The notes below the pieces were generated by a model, which saw only the letters and a program-made list of their open reading frames with translations, searched no databases and had not been told where the DNA came from. From assembly GCA_039815185.1 (NCBI GenBank), contig JBCBZT010000028.1, forward strand, positions 39,650-103,649: 64,000 nt of DNA, written 5' to 3'. Shown one piece after another: positions 574 through 60,379 of this stretch; positions within the stretch are counted from its first letter, which is position 1, and each line of letters starts with the position of its first letter. Both the position numbers and the translations under genes were made by a program. This DNA is from Cyanobacteria bacterium P01_A01_bin.123 (GTDB lineage Bacteria > Cyanobacteriota > Cyanobacteriia > Phormidesmidales > Phormidesmidaceae).

Positions 574-623
574 GTACAAAACTAAATTATTAAGGCTCAA
601 GGTGCTGTACTTCTCTTCAACCT

Positions 624-1979
624 CTAAGCACTAATCAAAGGCTCCGATCGCGCCTTAAAATCCGCCCGCATCAACGCTGACACCGCTACCTCCGGATCTA
701 ACACCCGAAACTGAGACCCCAATCGAATAATCTGCCGCTTCTGCTGATCGCGAATAATTGCCACCACGGGCACCTTTGCCAACTTCGGATCATCCCCTTG
801 ACTAGTACGCAACACATTCCGTAACCGATGCTGCTGCTCAATATCCGAAGCAATGCGAGGGTCCAGTTCCACCATTACCAGCTTTACATCTTCAATCGGC
901 TCCGCATCTTCCACAATGAACTGCACCCGTTCATCCCGGCTATCCGCCTTGCCCCACACCATCAACCGGGCATCGGCTTCAATGTAGCGACCAATGCGTT
1001 CATAGGAACGGGGAAACACCACGCCTTCTGCTTGCCCCGTCAGGTCTTCGAGCTGCACAATCGCCATGCGATCGCCCTTCTTGGTTACCACAGGTTTGAC
1101 GGATGCTAGCATCGCGATCGCGCTGATGGTGCCCTGCTCCGTATACTCGTGCAGTTCGCCTAAATTCACCGGAGCCAGTACCTTCGCCGAGCGCTGCACA
1201 GCCTTGAGCGGATGGTCTGAGATGTAAAAGCCCAGCAGTTCTTTTTCCAGCTTGAGCTTTTCTTGGGGGTCGAAGTCGGGTACCGGAAGCGCTTTGGGAG
1301 CAGACTCGTATCCCCCAACCGGGGCACTCCCGTTAGCGTCATCACCCCCGCCCCCCAGCATGTCAAACAGATTACCTTGCCCAATGGCGCGATCCTTCGC
1401 TCGCCCCTGGGCCCAGTCGAGCACCAGTTCGAGATCTTGCATTAGTTGGTTGCGGTTGTTCTCTAGGGTATCGAGGGCACCGCAGTGGATCAACGCTTCT
1501 AACGCACGGCGGTTGACGGCACGTAAATCAACGCGATCGCAAAGATCGGCTAACGACTTAAACGGCCCCTCCTCGTCACGGTCTGCCAAAATACACTCGA
1601 TCGCCCCCTGACCCAAATTGCGGATCGCGGAAAGACCAAACACAATGCTCTGGTTCAGCGGCGTAAAGTCAATCCGCGACTGGTTAATGTTGGGCGGCAT
1701 AACCTCAATGCCCATGCTGATGCAGTTGGCGATATGCATTTGTACCTTATCTTGATCACCGCTGTTTGCTGTCAACAGCGCCGCCATATACTCCACCGGG
1801 TAATTGGCCTTGAGGTACGCGGTTTGGTAAGTGACAAACCCGTAAGCCATCGAGTGGGATTTATTGAAACAGTTGGAGGCAACGATACCGTCAGCAAGCA
1901 AAAAGTTGTGATCTTTTGCCACCCCAATGTCATAAACTGGGCGAGTTCCGATGGATTGGCGGCTAATAATTTTGACCAT
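624..1979 (-). CDS. dnaE-c: DNA polymerase III alpha subunit, C-terminal part, preceded by the C-half of a split intein (DnaE-c)
   Basis: Starts MVKIISRQ...VYDIGVAKDHNFLLADGIVASN then CFNKSHS, followed by DnaE C-terminal motifs (YQTAYLKANYP, EKELLGFYISDHP, OB-fold region). Confidence 0.97.
   Translation of the reverse strand: MVKIISRQSIGTRPVYDIGVAKDHNFLLADGIVASNCFNKSHSMAYGFVTYQTAYLKANYPVEYMAALLTANSGDQDKVQMHIANCISMGIEVMPPNINQSRIDFTPLNQSIVFGLSAIRNLGQGAIECILADRDEEGPFKSLADLCDRVDLRAVNRRALEALIHCGALDTLENNRNQLMQDLELVLDWAQGRAKDRAIGQGNLFDMLGGGGDDANGSAPVGGYESAPKALPVPDFDPQEKLKLEKELLGFYISDHPLKAVQRSAKVLAPVNLGELHEYTEQGTISAIAMLASVKPVVTKKGDRMAIVQLEDLTGQAEGVVFPRSYERIGRYIEADARLMVWGKADSRDERVQFIVEDAEPIEDVKLVMVELDPRIASDIEQQHRLRNVLRTSQGDDPKLAKVPVVAIIRDQQKRQIIRLGSQFRVLDPEVAVSALMRADFKARSEPLISA
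1872..1979 (-). other. split intein C-fragment (IntC, 36 aa)
   Basis: Block F VYDIGV..HNF and terminal ASN followed by extein CFN, as in Ssp/Npu DnaE IntC. Confidence 0.95.
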
Positions 1980-2036
1980 AGTGATTGTCTCGATTGGTTT
2001 TTCTAAATAGATGAATAGGGGAAAGGCGTCTTTAAG

Positions 2037-2483
2037 TTATTTCGAGTTTTGAAGTTGAGCATGCAGTTGAGACATTAAAGACTGATACACATGCATATCA
2101 AATATTTGAAGATTATCAACACTAAATTCTCCACCAAGAATGGGATGGTTTTTCCACCCGATACACTCATTCAGATCTGGAACAATCTCGTTTTCTAGGG
2201 CAATGGGAAACCATCCAGCAATAAAGATTTCTTCGCGCCACTCGGATGATTTATTGAGCTGATTGAATTCATCCGCATTGTTGGCGACTTTTTCGTAAGC
2301 CCCTTCTAGAAGAGAGAGCACAAATAAGCTACCGTCTGGATGACCAAAAACCCAGTCACCAAAAGCAGATAAGAACAGTGGAGTTGCATCGGTAGGAACT
2401 AGCCATGACCAATAGGGCAAACAGTCCTGTATAGCTTGTACACTTGGTTTTGTCATGAACGCTCTAGCCATTTGCTGCATCAA
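2037..2483 (-). CDS. Tdi1/DUF1851-like putative immunity-type protein
   Basis: SAFGDWVF motif and a C-terminal CIGWKNHPILGGEFSVDNL segment recalling DUF1851/Tdi1 proteins; more AT-rich than dnaE; 4-bp overlap with the upstream ORF. Confidence 0.55.
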   Translation of the reverse strand: MMQQMARAFMTKPSVQAIQDCLPYWSWLVPTDATPLFLSAFGDWVFGHPDGSLFVLSLLEGAYEKVANNADEFNQLNKSSEWREEIFIAGWFPIALENEIVPDLNECIGWKNHPILGGEFSVDNLQIFDMHVYQSLMSQLHAQLQNSK

Positions 2484-3157
2484 GGCACCATGCTTAAGAT
2501 GTCTAATTTCTGCGTCACAATTTGCTTCAAAATCTTCAAAATTGTCTCGGCTTCGAGTTTTTCGCTGTACTCTCGCGACGATTCTAAATGCAGTACGGGG
2601 CGATCGCTTTCCATGCCGATTACCTCAGCCCTGACAAATGTCCAAATATCCGCCACGGTGTAGCAACCAAACACCGCTTGTGGATCACCGCGATCCAGTT
2701 CCCAATTCATTCGGGCAGCGGCTAAGAGTTGGCCGTAAAGCTGGTACTGGGGATTTTGGGCTTCGATGCCCCGCTTAGCTTCTAGCACCACCAAATAGGG
2801 GGCTTCAATCTCTCCCGAAAGTCCTTTGCCCAAAACCCCATCGACAATTCCTGATACTTCAAAGGTAGGATAGCTGGCTTTGAGGGCGACCTCAGCCCAA
2901 GCCTGGACAAAATCTCGCTCGGCCAGCACCAGTAAGGGATAAATCGCCCGCGCCCATACCGTGGCTTCATTCATTAACTGGGTCCGATAGTTGACCAGAC
3001 GAGACTGTACATCTTGGAGCTGCCGCTGTTCATTGTCGGTTAATGACACCCCATCCACCTGCATCCAATCGCGCTTGCCAACGCCGCGATCATTGATCTC
3101 AACCAGGGGCTTCAAATCAGCTAGGGTTAGATTTGAGAATAAAAGCTGTTTCATCAC
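2480..3157 (-). CDS. cyanobacterial hypothetical protein with a restriction-endonuclease-like PD-(D/E)xK signature
   Basis: GIVDG...VVLEAKRG...QLYGQLLAA pattern fits the D...ExK...Q nuclease-fold motif. Confidence 0.6.
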   Translation of the reverse strand: MMKQLLFSNLTLADLKPLVEINDRGVGKRDWMQVDGVSLTDNEQRQLQDVQSRLVNYRTQLMNEATVWARAIYPLLVLAERDFVQAWAEVALKASYPTFEVSGIVDGVLGKGLSGEIEAPYLVVLEAKRGIEAQNPQYQLYGQLLAAARMNWELDRGDPQAVFGCYTVADIWTFVRAEVIGMESDRPVLHLESSREYSEKLEAETILKILKQIVTQKLDILSMVP

Positions 3158-3176
3158 AGGACTCCAAGTCGAGACG

Positions 3177-5786
3177 TTACGCGATCGCCAAAGACGGCAC
3201 TGATACCTGTTTTAACTCTAGCCCCTGCTCAAAGATGTCGTTGATGGGCTGCATTTCTCCTGCCTCAGTCATAAATTTATGATCGACGGTCGCTCGGATC
3301 ACAGCCCCATTGTCCAGAACATATTCAAACACTTCCTGGTGCCCTCGGTCATGCCATTGGGCGATCGGTTGGGTGTAAACAAATCCATTGGCATCAACAC
3401 TGTAAACCTGACAGTTAATCTGTTGCTCAACAATTTTGCCAATGGCCAACGGGCCGTACTCGACTGTGAGCAATGGGGTGTCATAGCTCAGGCAATATTC
3501 CGCAAACTTGACCATCTGGTCCCAGAGTTCGTCAACGGCTTTTTTGGGCACCCCCTTCGCCACTGACCCCTCTGTAAACTGGCCTTTGTGCTTCTCCATT
3601 TCGGCCACTTTTTTCTTACCCATGGCCCGCCGCAGCAGGTCAGCTTGGCCCAGAGAATACCCGGCCATATCTTGGGCGATGCGCATGATCTGTTCTTGAA
3701 ACACCATGATGCCGTAGGTTTCTTTCAAGATCGGCTCTAGAATCTGGTGGTCGTAGTCGATGCGTTCGCGTCCGTGTTTGCGGTTAATAAATTTGGGAAT
3801 CAACCCCGCATCTAGCGGCCCCGGTCGGTATAGGGCCAGCACTGAAGAAATGTCCTCTAGCCCGGAGGGTTTCAAATCCCGCACGATCTGCCGCATGCCC
3901 GACGATTCCAGCTGAAAGATGCCGCCCAAATCGCCACTTTCCAAGAGCTTGAAGGCTTTTGGATCATCTTGGGGAATGGCATCTAAATCGATATCTACCT
4001 GGTGGTGCTCAGCTACCAAATCCACCGTTTTTTGAATCATTGTTAGGTTTTTGAGGCCCAAAAAGTCCATCTTTAGCAGACCCAGGGCTTCTACATCTTC
4101 CATGTAGTATTGCGTGATCACCTGGCCGTCGTTGTTGCGCTGCAGGGGCACAATTTCATCCAGCGGATCTTTAGAAATCACCACCCCAGCCGCGTGCATC
4201 CCAAAGGTTTTGTTCATGCCTTCAATTCGCAACGCCATGTCCAGCCAGCGGCGGGTTTGCGGATCGGTTTCGTATTTTTCTTTAAATTCTGGGGCTGGGG
4301 TATCGTCAGAAATCATCACCTTCAGCTTGGCTGGTTTGCCCCGCGCCACCGGAATCAGCTTCGCCATCCGGTCTGACTCGGCATAGGGAATATCCAACAC
4401 CCGCGCCACGTCTTTGAGCACCGCTTTGGAGGTCATGCGGTTAAAGGTGATGATCTGAGCGACTCGCTCTGTACCATAGCGTTCTCGGCAATACTCAATC
4501 ACCTCATCCCGCCGTTGGATGCAGAAGTCCGTATCAATATCCGGCATGGACTTGCGTTCAGGGTTGAGGAAGCGCTCAAACAGCAGGCCATGATGCACTG
4601 GGTCAATATTGGTAATGCCCATGGCATAAGCGACCAGCGACCCCGCCGCACTGCCGCGCCCTGGCCCCACGGGAATCCCTTTATCGCGGGCAAATTTGAT
4701 GTAGTCCCACACCACCAAGAAGTAGGTGGGGAACCCCATCTGGATCATCATTTTGATTTCGTATTCCAGGCGATCGCGATAGATTTGATCAATCTCTTTG
4801 TAGCTGGCAGTCCCCATGCGCTCGATTAACCCCTGGCGGGCGACATGGGCCATATAGTCTTCGGCCCCGTCAAACTCGTCTGGGATGGGGAAATCAGGGA
4901 TGCGCGGCTGGCCTAAAATACCCGTGTATTCTTCGATTTTGTCGGCGATTTCAAGCGTGTTGGCAATTGATGCTTCAATTACCTCATCCGTTAGGTGATC
5001 GCGAAATAGCTGGCGCATTTCGTCAGCCGATTTGAGATATTCTGTACCGCTATAGCGCAGTCGCTTGTCTTCGGTGATCAGCTTGCCGGTTTGAATGCAC
5101 AGCAGGGCGTCGTGGGCTTCGACGTCATTGCACGAAATGTAGTGGGAGTCGTTGGTGCAAATCAGCTTGATGTCTAGTTCCTTTGCCAACCGCACGATTT
5201 GCACATTGACGATCCGATCTTCAGGGGAACCGTGGTCTTGAATTTCTAAGTAATAGTCACTGCCAAAGAGGTCTTTGTACCAGCGGGCGACCCGTTCTGC
5301 CACATCCAGTCGGCCCTGTAAAATCGCTTGGGGAATTTCGCCCCCCAGACAGGCGCTCGTGACGATTAGCCCGTCGTGATATTGCTCCAGCAGATCTTTG
5401 TTAATACAAGGGCGCGAAAAAATGCCGGAACCCTGCACCCCCTGGAGATGGGAAATCGTGGTCAACTTGACCAGGTTTTTGTAGCCCTGGGTGTTTTTGG
5501 CTAAGACCACTTGATGGTAGCGGGGCAGCTTAATTTTCTTGCCAAAGCTGTTGTACTTCTGCTGGATATCGCCATTGACGACGTACATCTCGTTGCCGAT
5601 GATCGGCTTAATACCTGCTCCCTTGCAAACCTTAATCAGTTCAATCGCGCCATACATCACCCCGTGATCGGTCAGCGCGATCGCGGGCATGTCGAGTTCT
5701 TTGGCCCGTGCGACCAACTGCGGCAACTGGCTGGCCCCGTCTAACAGGCTGTAATCGCTGTGGATGTGAAGACCAACAAAAGACAT
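3177..5786 (-). CDS. dnaE-n: DNA polymerase III alpha subunit, N-terminal part, followed by the N-half of a split intein (DnaE-n)
   Basis: PHP domain ([12 protein letters not shown]), [23 protein letters not shown]; ends KFAEY then CLSYDT... intein. Confidence 0.98.
3180..3494 (-). other. split intein N-fragment (IntN, 105 aa)
   Basis: Starts CLSYDT, contains [12 protein letters not shown] and block [12 protein letters not shown]. Confidence 0.95.
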
Positions 5787-6504
5787 AGTGATGACAACAG
5801 TCCCTAGTACAAGTTTACTGCTTTTTTTGGGTTTTATTTGGGCTGGCTGAATCGGAGTGCAGCCAAAAGATGCATTCAGGGTAGCCGAAGTTTAGCGCTA
5901 TATCTAGATCATTGGTGTGGATTTTTATGGAGTGATGCCCTAAATGTGGATGTGGCGGAGATTAAGTGGGCGATCGCATATAACCCCCCACATTTCGCCA
6001 GGTTTGTCCAGCATGTGAGGCCCCTATTGAAATTCCTCGGATATCTTGAGATCTTAAATGTAAGCTAAAGAGTATTGCAGCTTGGGGATAATCCTGGGCA
6101 TATGTAATCCATCCTCTAGGTTTGTAGTAGACACTGATGGAAATGCTTGGCATAAGAATTAGGCATGTCAGATTAAAGGCAATGTCTTTTTGTGTTATCG
6201 AACACTCGTTTCAGTATCTCAGCACACGAACTCAAAATCGATGCCTTTTATGTGCTTGAATTACTGACTTAGATGCCTCAAAGTGTCAATTTTCCTCGGG
6301 AAAAAGGATAGTCAAAGCTATATTCTTAAACAATAGGTATGCATATCAAGTGATTACCTTCAAGTGGTTTTTAAGTAAAGCAATCTTAAGGATTAAACTA
6401 CTGGTAAACAAGAATTACAAAGCTTTTCATTTGACTTGATTAGGTTCAATCGCTCCTGTTACGATGCTGCTTAACCCCTGGTTTTAGGATGTTAGGCTAG
6501 AGAA

Positions 6505-6807
6505 ATGAGACAGCAGCAGGCCCACTATTTGAGCGTTATTAAAAGAGACTTGGCCGAGTCAAATACAAATGCAAAGATTAAGGCGATCGCCGTCAGAGCT
6601 GTTCTAGACTATTGGCGGAAGATGGGCCTAACAGGAGCAGATCTGCTAAGGCACACGTTAACGCTGAGGTTGCAAATTACCGCATCTAGTTTTGCAGAGA
6701 ACCATGCCTTGGCCTCAAAATATGTTCAGAGACTCGAAGCGTTTTGGGCTGGAGATGTTATTGGATCCTTGCTGGAAGATGATGTGCGCAGCCTATCCGA
6801 GATCTGA
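6505..6807 (+). CDS. hypothetical protein
   Basis: 100-aa ATG-started ORF with no competing long ORF; no motif recognised. Confidence 0.5.
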   Translation: MRQQQAHYLSVIKRDLAESNTNAKIKAIAVRAVLDYWRKMGLTGADLLRHTLTLRLQITASSFAENHALASKYVQRLEAFWAGDVIGSLLEDDVRSLSEI

Positions 6808-41911: not shown

Positions 41912-43054
41912 TCAGGCGATCGCTTCGTAGGATTTTTCGCCAGACACGAGCGCCAGCAGTTCATCAACCGTGAGGTTGCGTTTGAGTTGGGTGGAGCGAT
42001 CGCGGACGGCATTCAAGACGGATTGGCCATTGATGGCATCGAGCTGGACGCCGTAGTCTTCCAAGACTTGATTTAGCAAGTGGCGACCAGAGTGTTTGCC
42101 CACCACTAATCGGCGTTGCCAGCCAACTTCTTTGGGGTCAAAAGGTTCGTAAGTGCTGGGATTTTGTAGGACACCGTGGGCGTGGATGCCAGACTCATGG
42201 GCGAAGGTGTTTTCGCCAACGATTGCTTTCCAGGGAGCGACTGGGCAGTTCACCGCCTTGGCAATGAAGCGAGATAGCTCCAGAAAATGCTGGGTTTGAA
42301 TACCGGCTTTGAGGCCATAGATTTGCTTCAGCGCCATCACGACTTCTTCTAGGGCGGCGTTGCCGGCTCGTTCCCCTAGACCGTTAACGGTGGTGTTAAC
42401 CGAGGTAGCGCCGGCCCGGATGCCCGCTAGGGCATTGGCGGTTGCCAACCCCAAGTCATTGTGGGTGTGCATTTCTACGGGAATCTCTAGGGAGGTGACC
42501 AGCTTTTGTACCTTTGAGAAGGTGGTAAATGGATCTAGGATGCCGACAGTGTCGCAAAACCGAAAGCGGAATGCGCCCCATTCTTGAGCAAACTGGGCCG
42601 CATCGATTAAAAAAGTCTCGTCAGCCCGGGAGCTATCTTCACCACCGACACTCACTTCCAGGCCGTGATCACGAGCAAAAATGATGGCATCCCGTAACTG
42701 CTCAAGCATGCGGGCCCAGCGTCCTTGGAACTTGACCTGAATCTGCATGTCAGAGACGGGAATGGAAATGTGAATCCGTTTTAGGCCGCAATGAATGGAG
42801 GCTTGAACATCAGCGATGACGGCGCGGTTCCAACCCAGAAGGTGAGCATTGAGGCCCAGGTCAGCGATCGCGCGAATGGCTTTAGCCTCATCCTGACCCA
42901 TGGCCGGAATGCCCACTTCCAGCTCTTGAACACCAATGGCATCTAGGAATTTAGCGATCGCCACCTTTTCTTCTAGACCAAAGGCTACCCCTGCGGCCTG
43001 TTCACCATCTCGCAGGGTTGTGTCGTTAATGTAAATCTGGGGCGGAGTAGTCAT
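41912..43054 (-). CDS. nifV: homocitrate synthase
   Basis: [51 protein letters not shown]. Confidence 0.95.
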
Positions 43055-43186
43055 GGTAGCCTCCAAAGGGGATGGGGGAATACGAGCTGGGTTGATTGCA
43101 GCAAGGGAGTCGAGAGTAGGCGTTAGGAGTCAGAATTCAGGAGTCAGACTGTCTTTTTCCGGCTCCTGAATTCTGGGTGCTGATCT

Positions 43187-43333
43187 CTAAATCACGTTCG
43201 TCCAATCGTCAGTGGACTTAGCGCAGAGTTTCCTGAGATATTCGTTGTCGGCTTTGATCATCTGGTTGAGAAAATACTGCTGAATCCCAGCCCAGGCGAA
43301 AAAGAATCCAACAACGGTAAAAGTGGCAAGCAT
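43187..43333 (-). CDS. unannotated 48-aa single-pass membrane microprotein
   Basis: My translation: MLATFTVVGFFFAWAGIQQYFLNQMIKADNEYLRKLCAKSTDDWTNVI; AAGGA upstream; co-oriented between dps and nifV. Confidence 0.5.
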   Translation of the reverse strand: MLATFTVVGFFFAWAGIQQYFLNQMIKADNEYLRKLCAKSTDDWTNVI

Positions 43334-43407
43334 GTTAGGACATCCTTAGTGAGTGAGGAAAGCGTGTGGAAGCGGCAGATCAAGTGCTAATCGTGATTAG
43401 CTGTTGA

Positions 43408-43947
43408 TTACCTGAGAAACGTGACGGTGAGGCTTTCTTCGGCCAGGAAGTGATCGAGGTGAAAAGCGCGCTCTTCGGTTTTGAGCAAAATCTCTTCGTA
43501 GAGATAACGAGTGGCGCGATCGCCCACGCTTTCAGCCTGGGTGGCCAGCCGCCGCAGCAGCGCCATGATTTCGTTTTCTGCCGCTAGATCGTTTTCAATC
43601 ATTTGGCGACAGGTGTAAGCGCCCTCAGCTTCAGGGGTAAAGCAGCAGAGGTTTGCCAGGGTGGCCAATGTGCCTGCGGGGATGCCCCCTAATCCATTCA
43701 TGCGCTCGGCAACATCATGGGCGTGCCCTTGAGTGGCTTCGTAGCTCTCTTGCCAGAACTCATGGATGGAATAGAATTCCGCGCCTTCGACGACGAAATG
43801 GTGCTTCTGGTATTGCAGATAGAGGGCTTGAAAACTGGCATAAACCAGGTTGAACCCTTCACAGATCAGCGTAGTGACGTCTTTTTCAAGCCCGACCGGG
43901 TTATCCCCGACTTCACCAAATGCACGAATGAGAGTTTGAGTGGTCAT
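43408..43947 (-). CDS. dps: Dps family DNA-protection/ferritin-like protein
   Basis: LYLQYQKHHFVVEG.EFYSIH, HDVAER, TEERAFHLDHFL. Confidence 0.92.
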   Translation of the reverse strand: MTTQTLIRAFGEVGDNPVGLEKDVTTLICEGFNLVYASFQALYLQYQKHHFVVEGAEFYSIHEFWQESYEATQGHAHDVAERMNGLGGIPAGTLATLANLCCFTPEAEGAYTCRQMIENDLAAENEIMALLRRLATQAESVGDRATRYLYEEILLKTEERAFHLDHFLAEESLTVTFLR

Positions 43948-44032
43948 AGTGGTTACTCCAATGGGTTAACGAATGAAAATGAGACTTGTCTGGGCTGCTT
44001 GTTTGGGCCAAACAGCCTGGCTGGGTGAGACT

Positions 44033-44320
44033 TCAGGAGGAATAAGCAGCGGTACAAACCACTCGGGTTTGCCAACAGCGTTCTAGCCAGTCCACGCCTG
44101 CTTGGCGAGACGTGGTGAACTGTCGCACGGTGCTGTGGACTAGAACCAATGCGATCGCGTGGTCAACATCAACCCGTAGGGTGCCGTCGGCGGGACAAGC
44201 ACAGGGAATGTTGAGTTCTTGCAAGCGGCGATGGATCGACCAGCGATCGCCGGGATGCACTGAGACAACTTGGCCCCAGTTCTGAGAATTAAATGGGGGG
44301 GTGGAGGTGGACTTACTCAT
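44033..44320 (-). CDS. Asr1405/Asl0597 family protein
   Basis: [16 protein letters not shown]...V.S.VRQFT.SRQ..DWLERCW. Confidence 0.8.
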
Positions 44321-45044
44321 GGGATTGATACTCCAGGGGTGAATGAGGTGGGTAGGTAAGACTTTGGACTTGGGCTTCTAAAGCTTCAATGCGATCGATT
44401 AGCCGCCGTAGGGTTGCGGCTTCAGCGTCAGGCAGCTCACCGTGCTCTAGGGGAGCAGCAACGGTGTTGCATTTACAAACATTGCGATTGGGGATGCCAA
44501 CAGCAGTGCAGTTGGCAGGCACATCCCGCAATACAACAGAGCCCGCTCCGATGCGGGCATGGTCGCCAATATTAATGTTGCCGAGGACTTTGGCGCCGGT
44601 GCCAATCACCACTCGACTACCGACAGTAGGATGGCGCTTGCCCGTTTCTTTGCCCGTACCTCCAAGGGTGACACCCTGATAGATCAAGGTGTAGTCGCCC
44701 ACTATAGCGGTTTCGCCAATCACAACGCCCATGCCGTGATCGATAAAGACACCCTTACCCAGTTGGGCCCCTGGGTGAATTTCAATGCCCGTGAAGAAGC
44801 GGGCGAGGTGAGAAATAAAGCGGGGGAAAAAGCCAACACCGCGATGGTGCAACCAGTGGGCTAGGCGATGGGCTGCGATCGCATGCAGGCCGGGGTAGCA
44901 ACACAGCACCTCCAACCAGCTATGGGCCGCCGGATCGCGCTCAAAAATAACGGCGAAGTCTGCCAAGAGGGGCACTTGCTGATGCAATGCCTCTAGGGAG
45001 GGCAATCGCGGCTGACTCAGGAAGGAAGGCAGAGATAAGAACAT
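44313..45044 (-). CDS. nifP: serine O-acetyltransferase (nif-associated)
   Basis: [42 protein letters not shown]; divergent from nifB. Confidence 0.93.
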
Positions 45045-45140
45045 GGCTCTGGTGGGGCTGCGTTTCCATGCTTATAGCAATCGCGATATGAAGCGTTCGA
45101 TCGCTAAGGCCCAATCCAGATTTACTAAAACTATTACCGC

Positions 45141-45345
45141 TGTACTCAGTGGCTAAAGCATTGATTTATCAAGGGTTAAAGATTTCTTTAGGGTCGGGGG
45201 ACGAGTATTTTAGGGCTAAGGGGTGGGTATTTCTGATGTGAGGTACAGGTATTTTGTACTCACGGAAAAATCCTTATACCGCTTATATATAGATGTGTAC
45301 GCCGTTAATGACAGATTCACGAAGCCATCGGAGACTATGTACTCA
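45141..45345 (-). promoter_or_regulatory. three TGAGTACA boxes upstream of nifP (putative CnfR-dependent promoter)
   Basis: TGTACTCA on + at 45141, 45255 and 45338. Confidence 0.7.
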
Positions 45346-46050
45346 AAGTACGGTTTCTCCATCGTAAGTTCATGATTTCACAAAAGAAACTGTAGCAGAC
45401 TATGCAAAAACGCCTCTATTTAATTCAGCAATCCTTAACAAGTAGAACTAACCCCTTCAAGTGGCGCTTTATTGTAGAGCAGGAAGCTAAGCGTCAACGG
45501 GGAATGATTTGAGCCGATTATCTTGCTTGAGCCCGATTGGCTAAAAAGTTCAGACGCTAGAAGCTGGGAGTTAGGCGTCAGAGAATCCGATTTGAAACCT
45601 GGAGTTTTAGCTGAAGGAGAAACTGTGGATGTGGATGTGGATGCGGTTTGGTCTGTAGCGCTATCCTCTCCGGGTTCAGATCGGGTTCAGAATTCAAAAC
45701 CTAAGAAGCAAGAGAAACCATGCCGTAAAGTGATGCCCTCTTAGCAGCGCCTGTTGGCTGCTTATCCAGGCTGACACCCCACGACTTCCCATAGTTTGTA
45801 AGGGGTTGCTCTTCTCGCTGCGCATCTAATAGCCCCTGATGCCTTGCCAAATCCTGATTTCTGACCCCTGCTCTCCGATTCCTAAATCAATATCTCAACT
45901 TAAACGGAGACTCTGTTATATTAGTTAACGGAAAATAGTCAGACACGTTACCGACAAATTAGGGAAACTGAAAGAATCGATACAGACAGCACTTTTGCTC
46001 TCCCAGAAAGACGCACCATTTTGTATCTAAATTAGCCGAATGGGCAGATT

Positions 46051-46247
46051 TGAGTACTCAAAAAAGGGTACTCACTTAGGCGTTAAAAACACCATCAATC
46101 CCTTGCCTATCAATGGGTTGAGCTGAGTACAAGAATTACCGGGCGGCAGTGGCAAAATGCCAGCCCATGGGTTGGGAAATACCAGTACCCCGATCTTGAA
46201 AAAAAGTTTTTTCCTTGGATATTCAAGGGCTGTAGCGTTTGAGTACA
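46051..46247 (+). promoter_or_regulatory. three TGAGTAC boxes upstream of nifB (putative CnfR-dependent promoter)
   Basis: TGAGTACTCA at 46051, TGAGTACA at 46124 and 46240. Confidence 0.75.
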
Positions 46248-46751
46248 GTGTTAATCATTCAATAAATCCTATCGGGCAACTTTTCCTAAACGCTTCTGGA
46301 GCCGTTGCTATAACTCTTTCAACGCCGAGCAGCCAATCTTCAAAACCTGGTTAACTCGGTGAGGTCAACGGAACACAACGTCAACTTTGGCTCAGTTAGA
46401 GCTATTTCATCCCCCCGACGCTTTGTCTTCCTAACTTCATCGGTTTAGCCATGGATTAACTTAAGCGATTTCAGGCGTATTCACCTCCTTTGGGCTGCCC
46501 TCCTGCCCGTCTCGGGCAAATGAGCGCACCCCCTTACCGTGCACCGTGGAAATCGCTGATGGTTATTGAAACTGGGCTTATCGGATGACAACACTCCACA
46601 CTCTCCTAGATCTATGGGCGTTGCATCACCTGACATCTAAATCTAGTTCTCTAGCTTAACCAGCCCTTATAGAGCAACCGACCTGTGTTCACAGGATTGA
46701 TGCAGTCAGTGCCGCGCCCCTCTTTTTTGCCCTTAACAACCCCTAAAACCA

Positions 46752-48230
46752 ATGACGCCTCCGCCACCCACTGCCCTTGCCCCTGCGCCCACGACGACGC
46801 CCGAGCTGGACATTACTTTGACCAAAACTAAAACTGAGGTCAAAAAGTCTGGCGGCGGCTGCGGCTGCAGCAGCAAAAACGATGCCCCCAGCGGCATGAG
46901 CGAAACGCTAAAAGCTCGGATTGAAAAACACCCCTGCTACAGCGAAGAAGCTCATCATCATTACGCCCGCATGCACGTTGCTGTGGCCCCTGCCTGTAAC
47001 ATCCAGTGCAACTACTGCAACCGCAAATATGACTGCGCTAACGAAAGCCGCCCCGGTGTCGTTAGCGAACTGTTGACCCCTGAAGAAGCCGCCCACAAGG
47101 TTCTTGTGGTGGCAGGCAAGATTCCCCAAATGACGGTTCTGGGCATTGCTGGCCCTGGCGACCCCCTAGCCAACCCTGAGAAAACCTTCCGCACCTTTGA
47201 GTTGATTGCCGATAAAGCCCCCGACATCAAACTCTGCCTTTCAACTAACGGCCTGATGCTGCCCGACTATGTCGATCGGATCAAAGCCCTCAACGTCGAT
47301 CACGTCACCATCACTATTAATATGGTGGACCCATCAGTTGGAGAAAAAATCTATCCCTGGGTCCACTACCGCCGTCGGCGTTATCGCGGCATTGATGGGG
47401 TAAAAATCTTGCATGAGCGGCAGATGGAAGGCTTGCAAGCCCTTCAAGAAGCTGATGTGCTCTGCAAAGTTAACTCAGTGCTGATTCCCGGTGTCAATGA
47501 TGAGCACCTGCCGGAGGTGAATAAAGCAATCCGCGATCGCGGTGCGTTCCTCCACAACATCATGCCCCTGATTTCAGCCCCCGAGCACGGTACCTACTTT
47601 GGCTTAAACGGTCAGCGTGGCCCCAAGCCTAAAGAACTCAAGTCGGTTCAAGACAAGTGCTCCGGCAACATGAAAATGATGCGCCACTGTCGCCAGTGCC
47701 GGGCCGACGCCGTCGGTCTACTCGGCGAAGACCGCAGCCAGGAATTCACCAAAGAGAAGTTCATGGAAATGGCACCAGACTACAGTCTGGAAACTCGACA
47801 GGCTGTTCATGCTGGCATTGCAGAAGCCAAAGCTGCCGTTGCCGAGAAGAAACAAGCGGCCCATCGTACAGCTCCCGTAACGGCTTCGCCCAAAGTTCTG
47901 GTTGCCGTCGCCACCAAAGGGGGTGGTCTGGTTAATCAGCACTTCGGCCACGCCAAGGAGTTCATGATTTACGAAGTGGACGCGACCGATGCCAAGTTCA
48001 TTGGTCACCGCAAAGTCGCTGACTACTGCCAAGGGGGTTACGGCGAAGAAGCAGCCTTGACGGGCATCATCAGCACCGTTTCTGACTGCAAAGCCGTACT
48101 GGCCTCCAAAGTTGGCCCCTGCCCGCAGAAAGAACTGCAAAAAGCTGGACTCGTCGTGGTCGAAGCCTATGACGTGATCGAGTCCGTAGCGCGGCAGTTT
48201 TATGACGAGCACGTTTTAGAAAAGGCGTAG
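46752..48230 (+). CDS. nifB: FeMo-cofactor biosynthesis radical SAM protein NifB
   Basis: [36 protein letters not shown]-terminal NifX-like HFGHA. Confidence 0.98.
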
Positions 48231-48338
48231 CGCAGGGGGGCAAAGGCAGCATGAGCAACCTAAAGCCTACTGCCCTTGCCCCTCCGCTCCCTTTCTCCTC
48301 CCCTATCCCTCCACTCCCTACCAGCGAGGACCCAAGCC

Positions 48339-48743
48339 ATGACTTACACCATCACTAACAACTGCATTAGCTGCCAGCGCTGCCTTTCGAGTTGCCCCAC
48401 CAGCGCCATCCAGACTGATGGATCAAGCTTTTGGATTGATGTGAATCGTTGCAACCAGTGTGAGGGTTCCTACGGGGTGTCCCAATGCTGGGCAGTGTGT
48501 CCCACCAACGACGGCTGTGTGCCCCTGACAGCTGGGATGACGGCGGTCAGCATGACCCCTGTATCCAAGGTTCCAACCGACTACTGGAACACTTGGTTTG
48601 CCAGATACACCCGCATGGTAGCCCGCCTTAAAACGTCACAGCCATCGGGCTACTGGCAACAGTGGTTTGATACCTACTCTCAAACCTTACAGAACTTACA
48701 AACCGAATACGCCAACGGCAGCAATATACCGCTGACCCCATAA
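48339..48743 (+). CDS. fdxN: 4Fe-4S ferredoxin FdxN
   Basis: CISCQRCLSSCP...CNQC...CWAVCP; between nifB and nifS; uninterrupted. Confidence 0.9.
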   Translation: MTYTITNNCISCQRCLSSCPTSAIQTDGSSFWIDVNRCNQCEGSYGVSQCWAVCPTNDGCVPLTAGMTAVSMTPVSKVPTDYWNTWFARYTRMVARLKTSQPSGYWQQWFDTYSQTLQNLQTEYANGSNIPLTP

Positions 48744-48840
48744 TCCCCCCTTTGCTCCCCCCGCTTCTTTATCTCCCCTGCTCCCTCTCTCCCCCTGCTC
48801 CCCCTCCCCCTTGCCCTTTACCCACAACGGAGACGACGTA

Positions 48841-50034
48841 ATGGTCATTTATTTGGACAACAACGCGACTACAAAGGTTGACCCCGATGTTCTAACGGCG
48901 ATGCTGCCCTATTTGAGCGACCTTTACGGCAATCCGTCGTCAATGCACAGCTTTGGAGGGCAGGTCGGTGCCGCTGTCCAAGACGCCAGGGCTCAGATTG
49001 CTGAACTCTTAGGTGCTGAGGACACCGAAATCATCCTCAATAGCTGCGGCAGTGAAGGTAATAACACCGCTATCCATGCTGCCCTAGCCGCCCAACCTGC
49101 GAAACGTCACATCGTCACCACCGCAGTAGAACACCCCGCCATTCTGAATGTGTGCAAGCACTTGGAAAAGAAGGGGTACACCGTCACTTACCTGTCGGTC
49201 GACAGCCGTGGTCAGCTTGACCTGATGGAGTTGGAAGCGGCCATGACTGGGGGCACAGCTCTGGTAACGACGATGTATGCCAATAACGAAACTGGGGTAA
49301 TTTTCCCGGTGGAACAAATTGGTGCGATCGCGAAGGAATACGAAGCCACCTTCCACGTAGACGCGGTGCAGGCAGTCGGTAAAGTGCCGATTAATTTAGC
49401 CACCAGCACCATCGACCTACTCACCCTCTCCGGCCACAAGCTCCATGGGCCCAAAGGCGTCGGTGCCCTCTATGTGCGGCGCGGCTTCCGCTTCCGGCCC
49501 TTCTTGCTAGGTGGGCATCAAGAGCGCGGGCGGCGAGCCGGTACCCACAACGTTGCCGGTATTGTGGCCTTGGGTAAAGCCGCAGAGCAGGCCCGCCAGC
49601 ACCTGCAAAATGTTGCGCAGGAACGGCGCCTGCGGGACTTGCTAGAGACCCAGCTACTCGAGTTGATTCCGAACTGTGTGGTGAATGGCGGAGGCACCAC
49701 CCGTCTGCCCAACACCACTAACATCGGCTTCAAATACATCGAAGGAGAAGCCATCTTGTTCATGCTCAACCAGCATGGCATCTGCGCCTCCTCTGGCTCT
49801 GCCTGCACCTCTGGTTCCCTCGATCCCTCCCATGTGTTGACGGCGATGGGCCTGCCTTACACCATTCTGCACGGTTCAATTCGCTTTAGCTTGTCCCGGT
49901 TCACCACCGAGGCAGAAATCCAGCAAGTGCTGACCGTGATGCCCGGCATCGTCGAAAAACTGCGGGCGATTTCACCCTTCACAGATGACCAATCCGATTG
50001 GTTGCAGGGTCGCGATTTAGCCCATAGTGCGTAG
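48841..50034 (+). CDS. nifS: cysteine desulfurase NifS
   Basis: YLDNNATT, SGHKLHGPKG, SSGSACTSGS. Confidence 0.97.
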   Translation: MVIYLDNNATTKVDPDVLTAMLPYLSDLYGNPSSMHSFGGQVGAAVQDARAQIAELLGAEDTEIILNSCGSEGNNTAIHAALAAQPAKRHIVTTAVEHPAILNVCKHLEKKGYTVTYLSVDSRGQLDLMELEAAMTGGTALVTTMYANNETGVIFPVEQIGAIAKEYEATFHVDAVQAVGKVPINLATSTIDLLTLSGHKLHGPKGVGALYVRRGFRFRPFLLGGHQERGRRAGTHNVAGIVALGKAAEQARQHLQNVAQERRLRDLLETQLLELIPNCVVNGGGTTRLPNTTNIGFKYIEGEAILFMLNQHGICASSGSACTSGSLDPSHVLTAMGLPYTILHGSIRFSLSRFTTEAEIQQVLTVMPGIVEKLRAISPFTDDQSDWLQGRDLAHSA

Positions 50035-50117
50035 GCATCGCGATTAGGAACCACACACGTCTTTCCTCTCCTCCCGTTCCCTTGTCCACCCCTCACCCAT
50101 TCACCCCCGAAAAAGCC

Positions 50118-51026
50118 ATGTGGGACTATTCAGAAAAAGTACTCGACCTGTTCTATAACCCCGTCAACCAGGGGGCGATCGCAGACCCAAATCAACCCGA
50201 CGTGGCTGTGGTCTATGGCGAAGTGGGCAGCATTGCCTGCGGTGATGCTCTTAGATTGCACCTGAAGATTCAAGAGTCCACCGATACGATCTTGGATTCC
50301 CAGTTTCAAACCTTTGGCTGTACGAGTGCGATCGCCTCCTCCTCTGCCCTCACCGAAATCATTAAGGGCAAAACCTTAGATCAAGCGCTCAACATCTCCA
50401 ACCAAGACATTGCCGAATACCTTGGTGGTTTGCCCGAAGCCAAAATGCACTGCTCGGTGATGGGGCAAGAAGCGCTAGAAGCGGCAATCTTCAAATATCG
50501 TGGCATCGAAGTTGAGCAGCATGATGACGACGAAGGCACTCTAATTTGTCAATGCTTCGGCATTACCGAACCCAAGATTCGTCGGGTGATCATCGAAAAC
50601 AGCCTGAGCACTGTAGAGCAAGTCACCAACTACGTCAAAGCAGGCGGTGGCTGTGGCTCCTGTCTGGCAGGTATTGAAGACATCCTGATCGAAGTCCAGC
50701 AGGAAAAAGAGGCTGTCCCTGGGCGGGTTGCAGCGGAGATTGCGGTGGCTCAAGCCCAAGCAGCAGAAGATGCCCCACCCCGGCTCACAACCCTGCAAAA
50801 AATCAACCTGATTCAAAAGGTGCTGGATACCGAAATTCGCCCCATCCTGGTTGCCGATGGCGGTGATGTAGAGCTGTTTGACATTGACGGCGATCGCGTC
50901 CAGGTCTCTCTCAAAGGCGCTTGCGGCGGTTGCTCTAGCAGCACCAGCACCGTCAAATACGCCATTGAAGCCAAGTTACGAGAGTTTGTTTTACCGACCC
51001 TCACTGTTGAGGAGGTCGCCGGGTAA
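50118..51026 (+). CDS. nifU: Fe-S scaffold NifU
   Basis: MWDYSEKV, CGD, FGC, HCS, ICQC...GGCGSC, C-terminal GACGGC. Confidence 0.97.
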   Translation: MWDYSEKVLDLFYNPVNQGAIADPNQPDVAVVYGEVGSIACGDALRLHLKIQESTDTILDSQFQTFGCTSAIASSSALTEIIKGKTLDQALNISNQDIAEYLGGLPEAKMHCSVMGQEALEAAIFKYRGIEVEQHDDDEGTLICQCFGITEPKIRRVIIENSLSTVEQVTNYVKAGGGCGSCLAGIEDILIEVQQEKEAVPGRVAAEIAVAQAQAAEDAPPRLTTLQKINLIQKVLDTEIRPILVADGGDVELFDIDGDRVQVSLKGACGGCSSSTSTVKYAIEAKLREFVLPTLTVEEVAG

Positions 51027-51209
51027 CCGAGTAGATGGGTGACCGAAAGCTCATTTGCTCCTCCACCCTCCCACTCCTCTACCCTACTCCTCTCCTACTC
51101 CTGACAAAATGAACATCCCAAACTGGTTTATTCATTTCGGGCGATCGCCCCCGGCCTGACCCCGAAGTTTCAACGCTTCCCAGCTAAAGAATTCAGCACT
51201 TGAGCCTAA

Positions 51210-51244
51210 CTTCTGACTCCTGACTTCTGAATTCTGACTCCTGA
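51210..51244 (+). repeat. heptamer short tandem repeats (CTGACTC/CTGACTT, STRR-like) upstream of nifH
   Basis: CTTCTGACTCCTGACTTCTGAATTCTGACTCCTGA; the reverse-complement form occurs near 43125-43150. Confidence 0.75.
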
Positions 51245-52168
<924 letters not shown>

Positions 52169-52312
52169 CCCCTGATCATCTGACCGCATCGCCTGAACTG
52201 GGCCGGCACGAGCCAAATCACTTGCGAGCCAGCATTCAGGGCTTCCCCCGCACCCAGTCAGGCATTGTTTCTCCCCCGACCATTACTCCCTACATCAAAC
52301 AGAGAGGGCACC

Positions 52313-53761
52313 ATGACCACCGTAGAAGACAAAAAAGCGCTCGTCCAGGAGGTACTGGACGCCTATCCCGATAAAGCCAAAAAGAGCCGCTCCAAGCACA
52401 TCAATGTCACAGAAGAAGGCGCTTCCGATTGTGGCGTTAAGTCCAACAAAAAATCCGTTCCCGGCGTCATGACCACCCGTGGCTGCGCCTATGCAGGAGC
52501 CAAAGGGGTGGTCTGGGGCCCCGTCAAGGACATGATTCACATCAGCCACGGCCCGGTCGGTTGCGGCTACTACTCCTGGTCCGGTCGCCGCAACTACTAT
52601 GTCGGCACCACCGGAGTAGATACCTTCGGCACCATGCAGTTCACCTCTGACTTCCAAGAACGCGACATCGTCTTCGGCGGTGATAAAAAACTCGACAAGC
52701 TCATCGACGAACTCGAAGTCCTCTTCCCCCTCAGTAAAGGCACCACGATTGAATCCGAATGCCCGGTAGGTCTAATCGGTGATGACATCGAAGCTGTTGC
52801 CAAGAAGCAAGCCAAAAAGACAGGCAAGCCGGTTGTTCCCGTCCGTTGCGAAGGGTTCCGGGGTGTTTCCCAATCCCTAGGTCACCACATTGCTAATGAC
52901 ACTGTTCGTGACTGGGTGCTGCCCAAGGCCGACGAGTACCGTCAACTGCCCGAAGGCTTTGAGCCTAGCCCCTACGATGTCAACATCATTGGTGACTACA
53001 ACATTGGTGGTGACGCCTGGCCCAGCCGTCGGTTGCTTGAAGACATGGGTCTACGGGTAATCTGCCAGTTTTCTGGGGATGGCACCTTCAACGAAGTCGT
53101 GATGACGCCTTTGGCGAAGATGAATCTGATCCACTGCTACCGCTCTATGAACTATATCTGCCGCTTCATGGAAGAGAAGTATCAGATTCCCTGGTTAGAG
53201 TACAACTTCTTTGGCCCCTCCCAGATTGCCAAGTCTTTACGCAAGATTGCGGCTCAGTTTGATGAAACCATCCAGGCCAAAGCTGAAAAAGTGATCGCTG
53301 ACAACCAAGCGCGGATGGATGCCATCATCGCCAAGTATCGTTCCCGCTTAGAAGGCAAGACCGTGATGATGATGGTTGGCGGACTGCGTCCCCGCCACGT
53401 TATCCCCGCCTTCGAAGACTTGGGCATGAACGTGATTGGGACTGGCTATGAATTCGGCCATGGTGACGACTACAAGCGCACCGCCGACTACGTCAAAGAA
53501 GGCACCGTGATCTACGACGACGTCAGTGGTTATGAATTCGAAGAGTTGGCCAAGCAACTCAACCCTGACCTGATCGCGGCTGGCATCAAAGAGAAGTACG
53601 TCTTCCAGAAAATGGCCCTGCCCTTCCGTCAGATGCACTCCTGGGATTATTCCGGTCCTTACCACGGCTACGAAGGCTTCGAAGTCTTCGCCCGTGATAT
53701 GGACTTAGCCATCAACAATCCCACCTGGAGCTTGATCAACGCCCCGTGGCAAGCCGCGTAG
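52313..53761 (+). CDS. nifD: nitrogenase MoFe protein alpha chain
   Basis: GCAYAG, HGPVGC, HCYRS, GGLRPRH, MHSWDY; no excision element. Confidence 0.99.
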
Positions 53762-53923
53762 GTAGCTCAGGAGCAGGGGGAGCTAGGGAGCAGGGGAAGT
53801 TAGAGAAAAGTCATTCCTCATCTTCCCGGTTCCTAATATCTTACCCCTGCCCCCTCCGCTCCCTTGCTCCCTCTGCCATCCTCGCCCATCCTTCTCCCCC
53901 TCGCCTATCCCAAGGAGATCATC

Positions 53924-55492
53924 ATGACTGAGAACACCAATCCCCAAGTGCCGGAGAACACGCCAGAGCCCGGCAAAATTCAAGACCACTTTGATCTGTT
54001 CCAAACGGATACTTACCAAGACTTATTTGAGTACAAGCGCCAGTTTGAAGGAGCCCACAGCCGCGAGTCGGTGGCTGAAGTTGCAGAATGGACAAAGTCT
54101 TGGGACTACCGAGAAAAGAATTTTGAGCGTACAGCGCTAACTGTCAACCCAGCCAAAGCTTGTCAGCCGCTAGGCTCACTGTTCGTTGCAGCTGGTTTTG
54201 AAGGTACTCTACCCTACAGCCACGGTTCCCAAGGCTGTGTGGCTTACTTCCGCACCCACTTAACCCGCAACTATAAAGAGCCCTTCCAAGCTGTTTCCTC
54301 TTCCATGACGGAAGATGCGGCTGTATTCGGTGGCCTCAATAACCTCAAGCAGGGTCTGAATAATGCCTACACCCTCTACAATCCCAAGATGATTGCGCTG
54401 TGCACCACCTGCATGGCTGAGGTCATTGGGGATGACATCGGGGCCTTTATTCAAACGGCTAAAAACGAGGACTTAATTCCTCAAGATCTGCCCGTGCCCT
54501 CGGCGCACACCCCCAGCTTTGTCGGTTCCCATATCACTGGCTATGACAATATGCTTAGGAGCATATTGACGACGTTGACCGAAGGCAAAAAGGCTGAAAC
54601 CACCAACGGCAAGTTCAACTTCAACTTGGGCTTTGACCCCTACGTCGGCAATACCCGTGAGTTGAAGCGGATTCTGGGCCTGTTTGGTATTGACTACACG
54701 ATCTTGTCCGACAACTCCGATGCGTTTGATTCCCCCAACACGGGTGAATTCAAGATGTATAACGGACTCACCACCCTAGAAGATGCGGGTGATTCGATCA
54801 ACGGTGAAGGGACCTTCTTCTTCCAGAAGTACACCACACCCAAAACTCAAGAGTACATCGCCAAAGAATGGGAACAGAAGACCTACAACTTCCGACCCTT
54901 TGGCATCAAAGGCACCGATGAGTTCTTGATGGCCCTCTCCGCTATCACAGGCAAGCCAATTCCCCTAGAACTCCAGCAAGAGCGAGGCCGCGCCGTAGAC
55001 GCGATGACCGACTCTCAAGCTTGGATTCACGGTAAGCGCGTTGCCCTCTATGGCGACCCCGACCATGTGTTTGGCATTACCCAGTTCTTGCTAGAAATGG
55101 GTGCTGAGCCTGTACACATCGTGGTCACCAACTCCAACCCCGATTTTGAAGCCGAACTCCGTGAGGTGCTCACCAACAGCCCCTACGGACAAGATGCCAC
55201 GATCTGGGGCAAGAAGGATTTGTGGCATCTACGCTCCCTCATGTTCACCGAGCCCGTTGATCTCCTGATCGGCAACTCCTACGGCAAGTACCTCTGGCGT
55301 GATACCCACACACCCCTAGTGCGCATTGGCTATCCCATCTTCGATCGCCATCACATGCACCGCTATGCCACCCTTGGCTACCAAGGCGCGATCAACCAGT
55401 TCAACTGGATCATCAACACCATCCTGGATGAGCTCGATCGTCAGACCATCGTACCCGCGAAGACCGATATCTCCTTTGACTTGATCCGCTAA
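53924..55492 (+). CDS. nifK: nitrogenase MoFe protein beta chain
   Basis: NPAKACQP, HGSQGC, TTCMAE, FDLIR terminus. Confidence 0.99.
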   Translation: MTENTNPQVPENTPEPGKIQDHFDLFQTDTYQDLFEYKRQFEGAHSRESVAEVAEWTKSWDYREKNFERTALTVNPAKACQPLGSLFVAAGFEGTLPYSHGSQGCVAYFRTHLTRNYKEPFQAVSSSMTEDAAVFGGLNNLKQGLNNAYTLYNPKMIALCTTCMAEVIGDDIGAFIQTAKNEDLIPQDLPVPSAHTPSFVGSHITGYDNMLRSILTTLTEGKKAETTNGKFNFNLGFDPYVGNTRELKRILGLFGIDYTILSDNSDAFDSPNTGEFKMYNGLTTLEDAGDSINGEGTFFFQKYTTPKTQEYIAKEWEQKTYNFRPFGIKGTDEFLMALSAITGKPIPLELQQERGRAVDAMTDSQAWIHGKRVALYGDPDHVFGITQFLLEMGAEPVHIVVTNSNPDFEAELREVLTNSPYGQDATIWGKKDLWHLRSLMFTEPVDLLIGNSYGKYLWRDTHTPLVRIGYPIFDRHHMHRYATLGYQGAINQFNWIINTILDELDRQTIVPAKTDISFDLIR

Positions 55493-55686
55493 AAGTCAGC
55501 GAGTAGGGGATGCAGGGGAAGTAGGGGAGGGCAAGGGAAGCAAAAGAAAAAGAAGTAAATGAGCGGTTGGTTAAACACCTTAGCCAATACCCACTCCTTC
55601 TCTTCTCCCTTGCTTCCCCAGATCCTCCCACTCCCCCATCTTCCCCACTCCTCTAACTCCCCTCGCTCCCTCTCTTCCTAACCGCT

Positions 55687-55980
55687 ATGAAACTCAGCGA
55701 AGAAATCGAAATCGACTCTCCCCCCGCGTTTGAAATGGGAAGCCGCGTCCGGGTTCGTAAGGTGATTCGCAATGACGGCACCTTTCCCGGTAAAGACATC
55801 GGTTTCCACCTGGCTAAAAAAGGTGACGTCGGCTATATCGTCGGCATTGGCACCTATCTGCAGCGGGCCTACATCTATTCAGTTCATTTTCTAGAAACAA
55901 ACTACGTTGTGGGTTGCCTCAAAAAAGAACTCGATTTGGCAGAAGATCGTCAGCCCCTAATTGAGCAAGAAGACTGGTAG
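55687..55980 (+). CDS. nifZ: NifZ
   Basis: IRNDGTFPG...G.VGYI..IGTYLQ..YIYSVHF...VVGC. Confidence 0.93.
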   Translation: MKLSEEIEIDSPPAFEMGSRVRVRKVIRNDGTFPGKDIGFHLAKKGDVGYIVGIGTYLQRAYIYSVHFLETNYVVGCLKKELDLAEDRQPLIEQEDW

Positions 55981-56065
55981 CGATCGCCTCTTGAGACGGC
56001 TCTTCGAGCATCGCCCCCTTAACCCAACTCCTCCCACTATTTCCTCATATTTTGAACGTAATGCC

Positions 56066-56359: not shown

Positions 56360-56417
56360 TTCCTCTCCCCATCCCCCCTCTCACCCCATCCCCGCACCCC
56401 TCACCCCCCTCATCGCC

Positions 56418-59369: not shown

Positions 59370-59433
59370 AAGAAGATAGACACCAACCGCCTGAATTCTT
59401 TCCTTTATGACAACTGACGGAAGGAGACCCCTA

Positions 59434-60341: not shown

Positions 60342-60351
60342 GCATCCCCCA

Positions 60352-60379
60352 GTACAGACGCGATCTTAATCGCGTCTCT
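60352..60379. repeat. REP-like short palindromic element
   Basis: GTACAGACGCGAT-CTTA-ATCGCGTCTCT. Confidence 0.65.

Follow-up and report, generated by a model that had tools for sequence, protein, structure and literature searches.

The split dnaE locus

The window analyzed here, a stretch of 64,000 nucleotides from the genome of Cyanobacteria bacterium P01_A01_bin.123 (contig JBCBZT010000028.1, positions 39,650 to 103,649 of the forward strand; genome G000 in our set), carries dnaE, the gene for the alpha subunit of DNA polymerase III, in two parts, each of which bears one half of a split intein. Four genes make up the locus, all on the minus strand and at the positions given by the first-pass annotation. 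The upstream gene, dnaE-n (3177 to 5786), encodes 869 amino acids (aa), of which residues 1 to 764 hold the PHP, NTPase, and finger domains of the N-extein and the remaining 105 form the N-intein (3180 to 3494). The downstream gene, dnaE-c (624 to 1979; 451 aa), begins with a C-intein of 36 aa (1872 to 1979) and continues into the C-extein with its HhH and OB domains. From the dnaE-n stop to the dnaE-c start, a gap of 1,197 bp (1980 to 3176) lies at the intein split point, a place occupied in relatives by a LAGLIDADG gene, by deletion relics, or by changing cargo. In the window, it holds ORF225 (open reading frame [ORF] at 2480 to 3157), a predicted PD-(D/E)xK nuclease-fold protein with D106, E126, and K128 kept, and ORF148 (2037 to 2483), a Tdi1/DUF1851-like gene of the immunity type (PF08906).

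With GTG and TTG starts, 19 bp separate dnaE-n from ORF225, ORF225 and ORF148 overlap by 4 bp, and 57 bp separate ORF148 from dnaE-c; the next ATGs, including the likely start of ORF225 at 3154, give 22 bp and a 1-bp stop/start overlap instead. This spacing and the common strand fit a four-gene operon, which is plausible from the sequence, with a predicted transcript across 3177 to 1979. A scan of the locus for promoter and terminator consensus sequences was uninformative (4 and 3 sites versus ~7 each in shuffled sequences). The segment at the start of ORF225 (3200 to 3140), where a fractured gene would have an RNA hairpin preceding its endonuclease, folds at −12.3 kcal/mol in a single fold computed without a shuffle control. 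A 7-bp inverted repeat at both ends of the gap was absent from 18 other loci examined and was set aside as chance or local.

In Ssp (strain PCC 6803) and Npu, the halves of DnaE are translated separately and are then joined by protein trans-splicing. The window shares its insertion point and intein family with these cyanobacterial split DnaE inteins (PMC2677866, PMC2874743, PMC3403396). Like them, it has two genes with an intein half on each at the canonical site, an acidic N-half (net charge −9), a basic C-half (+1), and the catalytic residues Cys1, Thr69, and His72 in the N-intein, the terminal Asn36 of the C-intein, and extein Cys+1 behind it. Both genes exceed the curated cut-offs of the split-DnaE models (dnaE-n, 1652 bits versus 1525 for NF007079; dnaE-c, 722 versus 646 for NF005616). 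TIGR01445 (N-intein) falls on dnaE-n residues 765 to 840, TIGR01443 (C-intein) falls on dnaE-c residues 14 to 37, and the N-intein matches DnaE inteins in the PDB with E values down to 3e-42. The junction residues match those of relatives, and the two halves are the only dnaE found in G000. Judging from family membership and this single-copy replicase, the polymerase would be made by protein trans-splicing. The window differs from the textbook case in distance, its halves lying 1.2 kb apart on one strand versus >700 kb, and this state varies within genera.

The layout was recovered in other assemblies. Among four sequencing runs examined, run X2 (another sample, from the same study as the possible source) covers positions 624 to 4458 in a single contig; run X6 (another study, ~94% identical) has a 14.4-kb contig with the same gene order that skips 1986 to 2422; and in run X5 (a third study), the gap is crossed solely by three overlapping short contigs. 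A second hotspot of integration or recombination seems to lie at the 3′ end of dnaE-c. Beyond its stop codon, runs X2, X3, and X6 each carry different DNA, and X2 shows many letter differences from the window in 663 to 1125. A direct repeat of the final 126 bp of dnaE-c (86% identity) occurs ~2.4 kb downstream (window 610 to 734 and G000:C29:37692-37817, L017), and the two copies flank two genes of low guanine-plus-cytosine (GC) content, one of them TMEM164-like.

Adjacent halves are shared by many relatives

The full-length model NF005617 was run against 251 genomes of the class, at most 25 per family, so that the counts are not true frequencies, and 103 multi-match genomes not already placed were re-run so that both halves were visible. 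The site is uninterrupted in 139 of these genomes and split in 109; the state of the other 3 is undetermined. Linked halves (N before C, same strand, no more than 8 kb apart) were found in 24 of the 109 split genomes and in 10 families, and the rarity implied by the first-pass annotation thus did not hold up. The halves are far apart on one contig in 21 further split genomes and are in reversed order in 9, all of genus g49 (L215 and eight others), where dnaE-c precedes dnaE-n by 10 to 13 kb on a shared strand and housekeeping genes lie in the interval. In G293, they are 15 kb apart on opposite strands. Within the window's family (111 genomes), ~69 genomes have an uninterrupted gene and ~35 are split, 14 of these with linked halves. 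Overall, we found 33 distinct genomes with linked N-then-C halves within 8 kb. The window's 1,197-bp gap is ordinary, since the gaps of 25 linked, endonuclease-free loci span 649 to 7,885 bp.

A LAGLIDADG gene sits at the split point in relatives

In 6 of the 33 linked genomes, the gap (747 to 774 bp) is filled by one gene of 252 to 266 aa with two LAGLIDADG motifs, and all five gap ORFs tested passed the Pfam LAGLIDADG_3 cut-off. One carrier, G265, is a member of the window's own family. From a scan of GTDB genomes for this family, we retained 79 loci, of which 54, at least 57% identical, are cyanobacterial judging by title or context; these loci overlap the linked-genome set, and the counts are not additive. 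Each of the 54 adjoins a dnaE intein half, with both halves present in 48; among the remaining six, five lie where a contig ends, and L110 is a truncated copy next to dnaE-c. The gene is intact in 43 loci, broken in 10, and cut in 1, and its ratio of nonsynonymous to synonymous substitution rates (dN/dS) is 0.09 to 0.25 (eight of nine pairs gave a dS value). As a rule, the gene extends 8 nt past the dnaE-c start, and in several carriers it also overlaps the N-intein stop. In L110, the 0.9 kb upstream of the truncated gene holds an unrelated ORF and no N-intein, and in L111 the endonuclease gene is interrupted by ~2.5 kb of other DNA.

Different states of the locus coexist in the family of G208 (61 genomes), where the 20 loci fetched comprised 10 intein-free alleles, 3 complete cassettes, 5 short gaps, 1 fusion, and 1 separated N half. 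Deletion relics with gaps of 117, 69, 69, 35, and 35 bp (L324, L319, L320, L322, and L323) keep the ends of the LAGLIDADG gene, most clearly in G340, where the identification rests on a tblastn match, the others being read by eye. In L321 (G383:C119:23950-28300), in-frame fusion of the N- and C-intein yields an uninterrupted cis mini-intein of the split DnaE type; this comes from a single unverified assembly, and the closest allele in the intein tree is one that bears an endonuclease.

A phage source of the LAGLIDADG family was considered and rejected: none of 80 viral loci lies beside a matching intein half, and the relatives in viral contigs and phage records are just ~24 to 33% identical. 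One 28% relative (H3/H4), annotated as a mobile intron protein, is found in the DNA polymerase III alpha gene of Bacillus phage 0305phi8-36, and several viral contigs have distant genes of the family beside dnaE pieces. In genus g23 and the family of G208, many dnaE-n genes carry additional insertions, in frame, around model positions 371, 689, and 715, some totaling >1,000 aa and one of them intein-like (L087, L112).

Signs of spread and reversal of the cassette

In an extein tree of 120 rows, chosen to cover mixed genera and not at random, alleles followed genus labels, and split and intein-free alleles were interleaved within genera. In a tree of 51 rows (48 of the window's family and 3 outgroups), with 30 residues removed on each side of the junction, we counted 14 changes of state, and a single clade of split alleles was rejected (approximately unbiased test, p-AU 9.6e-58). 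Residues flanking the junction track genus, not the split or intein-free state. The intein-free alleles nested in the window's family would most simply be reversions, and because the halves are adjacent, reversal could take a one-step route.

Other data point to movement between hosts. The cassette of G032 groups with those of Okeania/Trichodesmium (100/97; 22 endonuclease carriers), a grouping rejected by the extein data (p = 9.7e-7), and the cassette data in turn reject two host groupings of G032 (1.4e-8 and 2e-4), these p-values being optimistic since the groupings were named after the trees had been seen. In L093, titled Gloeobacterales, the endonuclease resembles those of most other carriers more closely (0.65 to 0.71) than the exteins resemble theirs (0.51 to 0.66), which is unusual when a nuclease is compared with a replicase. 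Across 22 Microcoleus-type loci, synonymous divergence was 0.13 in the N-intein and 0.14 in the endonuclease versus 0.18 to 0.25 in the distal exteins; four g51 alleles without an intein are placed among these loci. Third-position differences in ten of the Microcoleus-type loci were 3.3, 4.1, and 4.0% in the cassette versus 10.7 and 15.9% outside; the ten were picked from the intein tree, so that the intein figure is low partly by selection, whereas the endonuclease figure is not. N- and C-intein values of split-versus-intein-free pairs were left out as alignment artefacts. We read these sequence differences as signs of a low-divergence sweep of the cassette in Microcoleus, a set in which no clear co-conversion patch was seen near the junction.

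The locus as a probable descendant of a fractured cassette

The window resembles the fractured genes described by Dassa et al. (2009; PMC2677866), in which a conserved DNA-metabolism gene is broken by a split intein within one locus, N half before C half, with a free-standing gene at the split. That paper described the cyanobacterial dnaE halves as residing at separate loci, the outcome of one irreversible event, and called it unclear how an essential replicase gene could be broken without a lethal intermediate; it proposed a route by endonuclease invasion, with no example at the DnaE site, and merely suggested that LAGLIDADG enzymes might be able to fracture genes. The relatives described here form a series that matches Fig. 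5 of the same paper: step II of its model (an endonuclease in the gap), step III (the endonuclease lost), and step IV (the halves apart) are all found among them. The window has same-strand, N-then-C halves in one locus and a nuclease-fold gene of no known homing family between them; a free-standing endonuclease of a known homing family is present at the 48 LAGLIDADG loci that have both halves. The 3′ overlap of the endonuclease gene with the downstream start, also seen in fractured genes, is absent from the window and present in the LAGLIDADG carriers. The loci of Dassa et al. are metagenomic and probably from phages, with GIY-YIG or Vsr-like nucleases and other insertion points in DnaE, whereas the window locus is chromosomal, at the canonical site, with cargo in its gap, and its relatives use LAGLIDADG.

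From the layout and its recurrence in relatives, the splicing residues, the LAGLIDADG gene at the split point of relatives, the relics, and the changing cargo, we infer a series of events in which cleavage, homing, and co-transcription would each have a part. A LAGLIDADG endonuclease gene would have disrupted the intein and contributed the signals for stop and start, as its 8-nt overlap with the dnaE-c start suggests. The intact enzyme would cut intein-free dnaE alleles and copy in the whole cassette, which could work only while the halves are adjacent. Once the endonuclease decays, the gap would take up same-strand cargo compatible with read-through to dnaE-c. Finally, the adjacent halves could be replaced by an intein-free allele in a single recombination step or drift apart to the textbook layout. 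The window is a degenerate member of this series, and its cassette has probably lost self-mobility. We consider it probable that an endonuclease-made fractured cassette entered the lineage, or was inherited, long ago and lost its endonuclease while the halves stayed adjacent around a cargo slot.

The first-pass annotation had offered adjacency as an ancestral state just after the break. An early-type state agrees with the order shared by the 33 genomes and with the graded loss of the endonuclease, but a snapshot just after the break does not, for the gap genes are probably later cargo.

Several observations weigh against our interpretation. No LAGLIDADG trace was found in the window or in G000 (one search lacked a positive control), so that a former LAGLIDADG gene in this lineage is deduced from relatives. 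In 55 of the 109 split genomes, the halves lie on different contigs and linkage is not scorable. The trees are unrooted for state, and the counts of changes cannot separate gain from loss. The p-values for G032 are optimistic. The window's family gives no sign of recent homing, because intein and extein are about equally diverged (synonymous divergence, 0.49 versus 0.47; rho 0.73 over 231 non-independent pairs) and no clear co-conversion patch is seen at the junction in four of its genera; its intein tree groups by genus, and genes of the gap recur in different genera. ORF225, finally, is under purifying selection (dN/dS ~0.06), and in the 111 family genomes it lies within ~5 kb of a dnaE half in nine of nine hits, none of them in an intein-free genome; idle cargo would need neither.

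The gap genes as probable cargo

ORF225 has no Pfam or NCBIfam family match. Its structure model (predicted local distance difference test score [pLDDT] 92) matches PD-(D/E)xK folds, among them BpuSI (Z 10.7; root mean square deviation [RMSD] 3.8; 146 residues aligned) and DrdV (Z 9.8), and matches best two human mitoribosomal large-subunit chains, 3j7y_5 (Z 15.4; RMSD 3.9; 209 aligned) and 7a5f_s3 (Z 14.8); judging from the model, these chains may have a close structural relative in this bacterial family. The fold and a D-x19-E-x-K motif are shared with BpuSI, DrdV, the nuclease domains of HsdR, and Uma2 proteins, and one Atlas cluster with HSDR_N on 22% of its members scores 0.95. Unlike type IIG and type I restriction nucleases, ORF225 stands alone, with no methylase partner in the window.

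Could ORF225 be a new PD-(D/E)xK homing nuclease that has replaced the LAGLIDADG gene, making the window cassette an active fractured gene? The fold allows it, and D106, E126, and K128 are kept in all 10 gap copies and invariant in 40 homologs. The purifying selection and the nine dnaE-linked hits noted above also speak for such a role, as does a conflict of the ORF225 tree with the host tree in genus g13 (p = 4e-4), but ORF225 is not confined to its own site: at class level, 9 of 18 ORF225-family genomes have copies away from dnaE, one of them six copies, and the 852 homologs reach across phyla, Thioploca and Desulfobacteraceae included (named relatives point to Halomicronema/Nodosilinea-type cyanobacteria). 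It is the first gene past the N-intein stop in 7 of the 10 copies, yet it lies deeper in the gap in G002, G337, and G057, and neither ORF225 nor ORF148, which end 500 and 57 bp before dnaE-c, overlaps the dnaE-c start. In genus g13, ORF225 has been swapped while the intein stayed; in other families, the same slot holds Uma2, toxin-antitoxin, or restriction genes, and the window's family shows no low-divergence sweep. A horizontal transfer of the ORF225 cassette among G000, G005, G024, and G009 was considered and dropped, the extein data not rejecting the group (p = 0.25). On this evidence, we take ORF225 for long-resident cargo and consider a homing role unlikely.

ORF148 has a GC content of 0.42 and a third-position GC content of 0.37 versus 0.62 to 0.64 in dnaE, and its nearest named relatives are Pseudoalteromonas and Vibrio proteins (marine Gammaproteobacteria). 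We had considered ORF225 and ORF148 as a Tde1/Tdi1-type toxin-immunity pair and rejected it, since ORF225 is the sole gap gene in G024 and G009 and the 94%-identical relative in run X6 lacks most of ORF148. Because ORF148 is missing there and other genomes carry other genes, both gap genes are probably later cargo. Elsewhere, among the 41 gap ORFs scanned out of 55, the cargo included 8 Uma2 genes, 4 DUF2513 genes, 2 PemK genes, 2 methylases, and 1 restriction enzyme, and some gap genes are common to several genera. Leaving out the gap of G248, 35 of 38 gap ORFs of at least 100 aa are co-oriented with dnaE, which fits read-through to dnaE-c without showing it.

Other origins of the linked halves

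The intein might have been split first by some other insertion or a small mutation, with the LAGLIDADG gene a later invader of the gap that the window's lineage may never have had. In line with this, a LAGLIDADG gene is missing from 27 of the 33 linked genomes that the dnaE searches returned, none was seen in G000, and the nucleotide intein tree groups most endonuclease-bearing alleles apart from most of the window's family. Against it, the gene overlaps the dnaE-c start in its carriers and, in several, the N-intein stop, as the breaker in the model of Dassa et al. should; the shortest gaps are LAGLIDADG relics, and carriers of the gene occur in many families, among them that of the window. 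We regard this origin as quite unlikely.

The second possibility raised by the first-pass annotation, that distant halves were re-joined by rearrangement, found no support. Rearrangements do occur, as the nine reversed g49 genomes and the opposite-strand halves of G293 attest, but re-joining would have had to happen independently many times across 10 families, always with one outcome in order and strand and with an endonuclease gene or relic where the intein is split, and the gap genes common to different genera also argue otherwise, making it very improbable. A mis-join, for all that the 8.09-Mb assembly is in 133 contigs with an estimated contamination of 5.99%, is refuted, given that contigs of other samples and of another study bridge the gap and that relatives share the layout and ORF225.

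Other features of the window

A nitrogen-fixation cluster with nifV-, nifB-, nifS-, nifU-, nifH-, nifD-, and nifK-like genes lies at 41912 to 61794; it includes a 983-aa protein (56418 to 59369) with two nitrogenase component-1 domains, probably a fused nifEN. Near dnaE-n, an ORF of 100 aa (6505 to 6807) with no family match has a 67%-identical paralog on another contig (matching stretches, window 6431 to 6784 and G000:C82:44000-44354).

Discussion

Split DnaE, fractured genes, and the patchy presence of the intein are already known. Linkage of the two halves proved common, as the first-pass annotation had allowed it might, but a published description of it was not found: we found no account of the adjacency, the LAGLIDADG occupant, the decay series, or continued spread at the DnaE site in a search that did not include Caspi 2003, Wu 1998, and most subscription literature, so that an earlier mention is possible. 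Uyeda et al. (2016; PMC5029880) treated the DnaE intein as a marker gained once and read mixed clades as convergent loss; in the part of that paper available to us, we found no mention of adjacency or an endonuclease. Our data for the window's family fit its convergent losses. Its single gain was assumed, however, whereas the conflict between cassette and host and the Microcoleus pattern reported here point to continued spread.

The split intein likely arose as a mobile, reversible cassette and in some lineages is likely one still. More broadly, we lean toward the view that the textbook split DnaE intein is a living homing cassette that invades intein-free dnaE, crosses lineages, and then decays, re-fuses, heals, or drifts apart. 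Each stage of the endonuclease-invasion route can now be assigned to named genomes, and the route has an enzyme that can be tested on a predicted target. The loci also provide a LAGLIDADG family that is new, a naturally occurring cis version of the intein that biotechnology uses most, and a slot for cargo within an essential gene pair. Should the cassette indeed be mobile to this day and open to loss, the DnaE intein would be unsafe as a once-gained marker of cyanobacterial phylogeny, and the example that it has provided of "stable complexity" would need revision.

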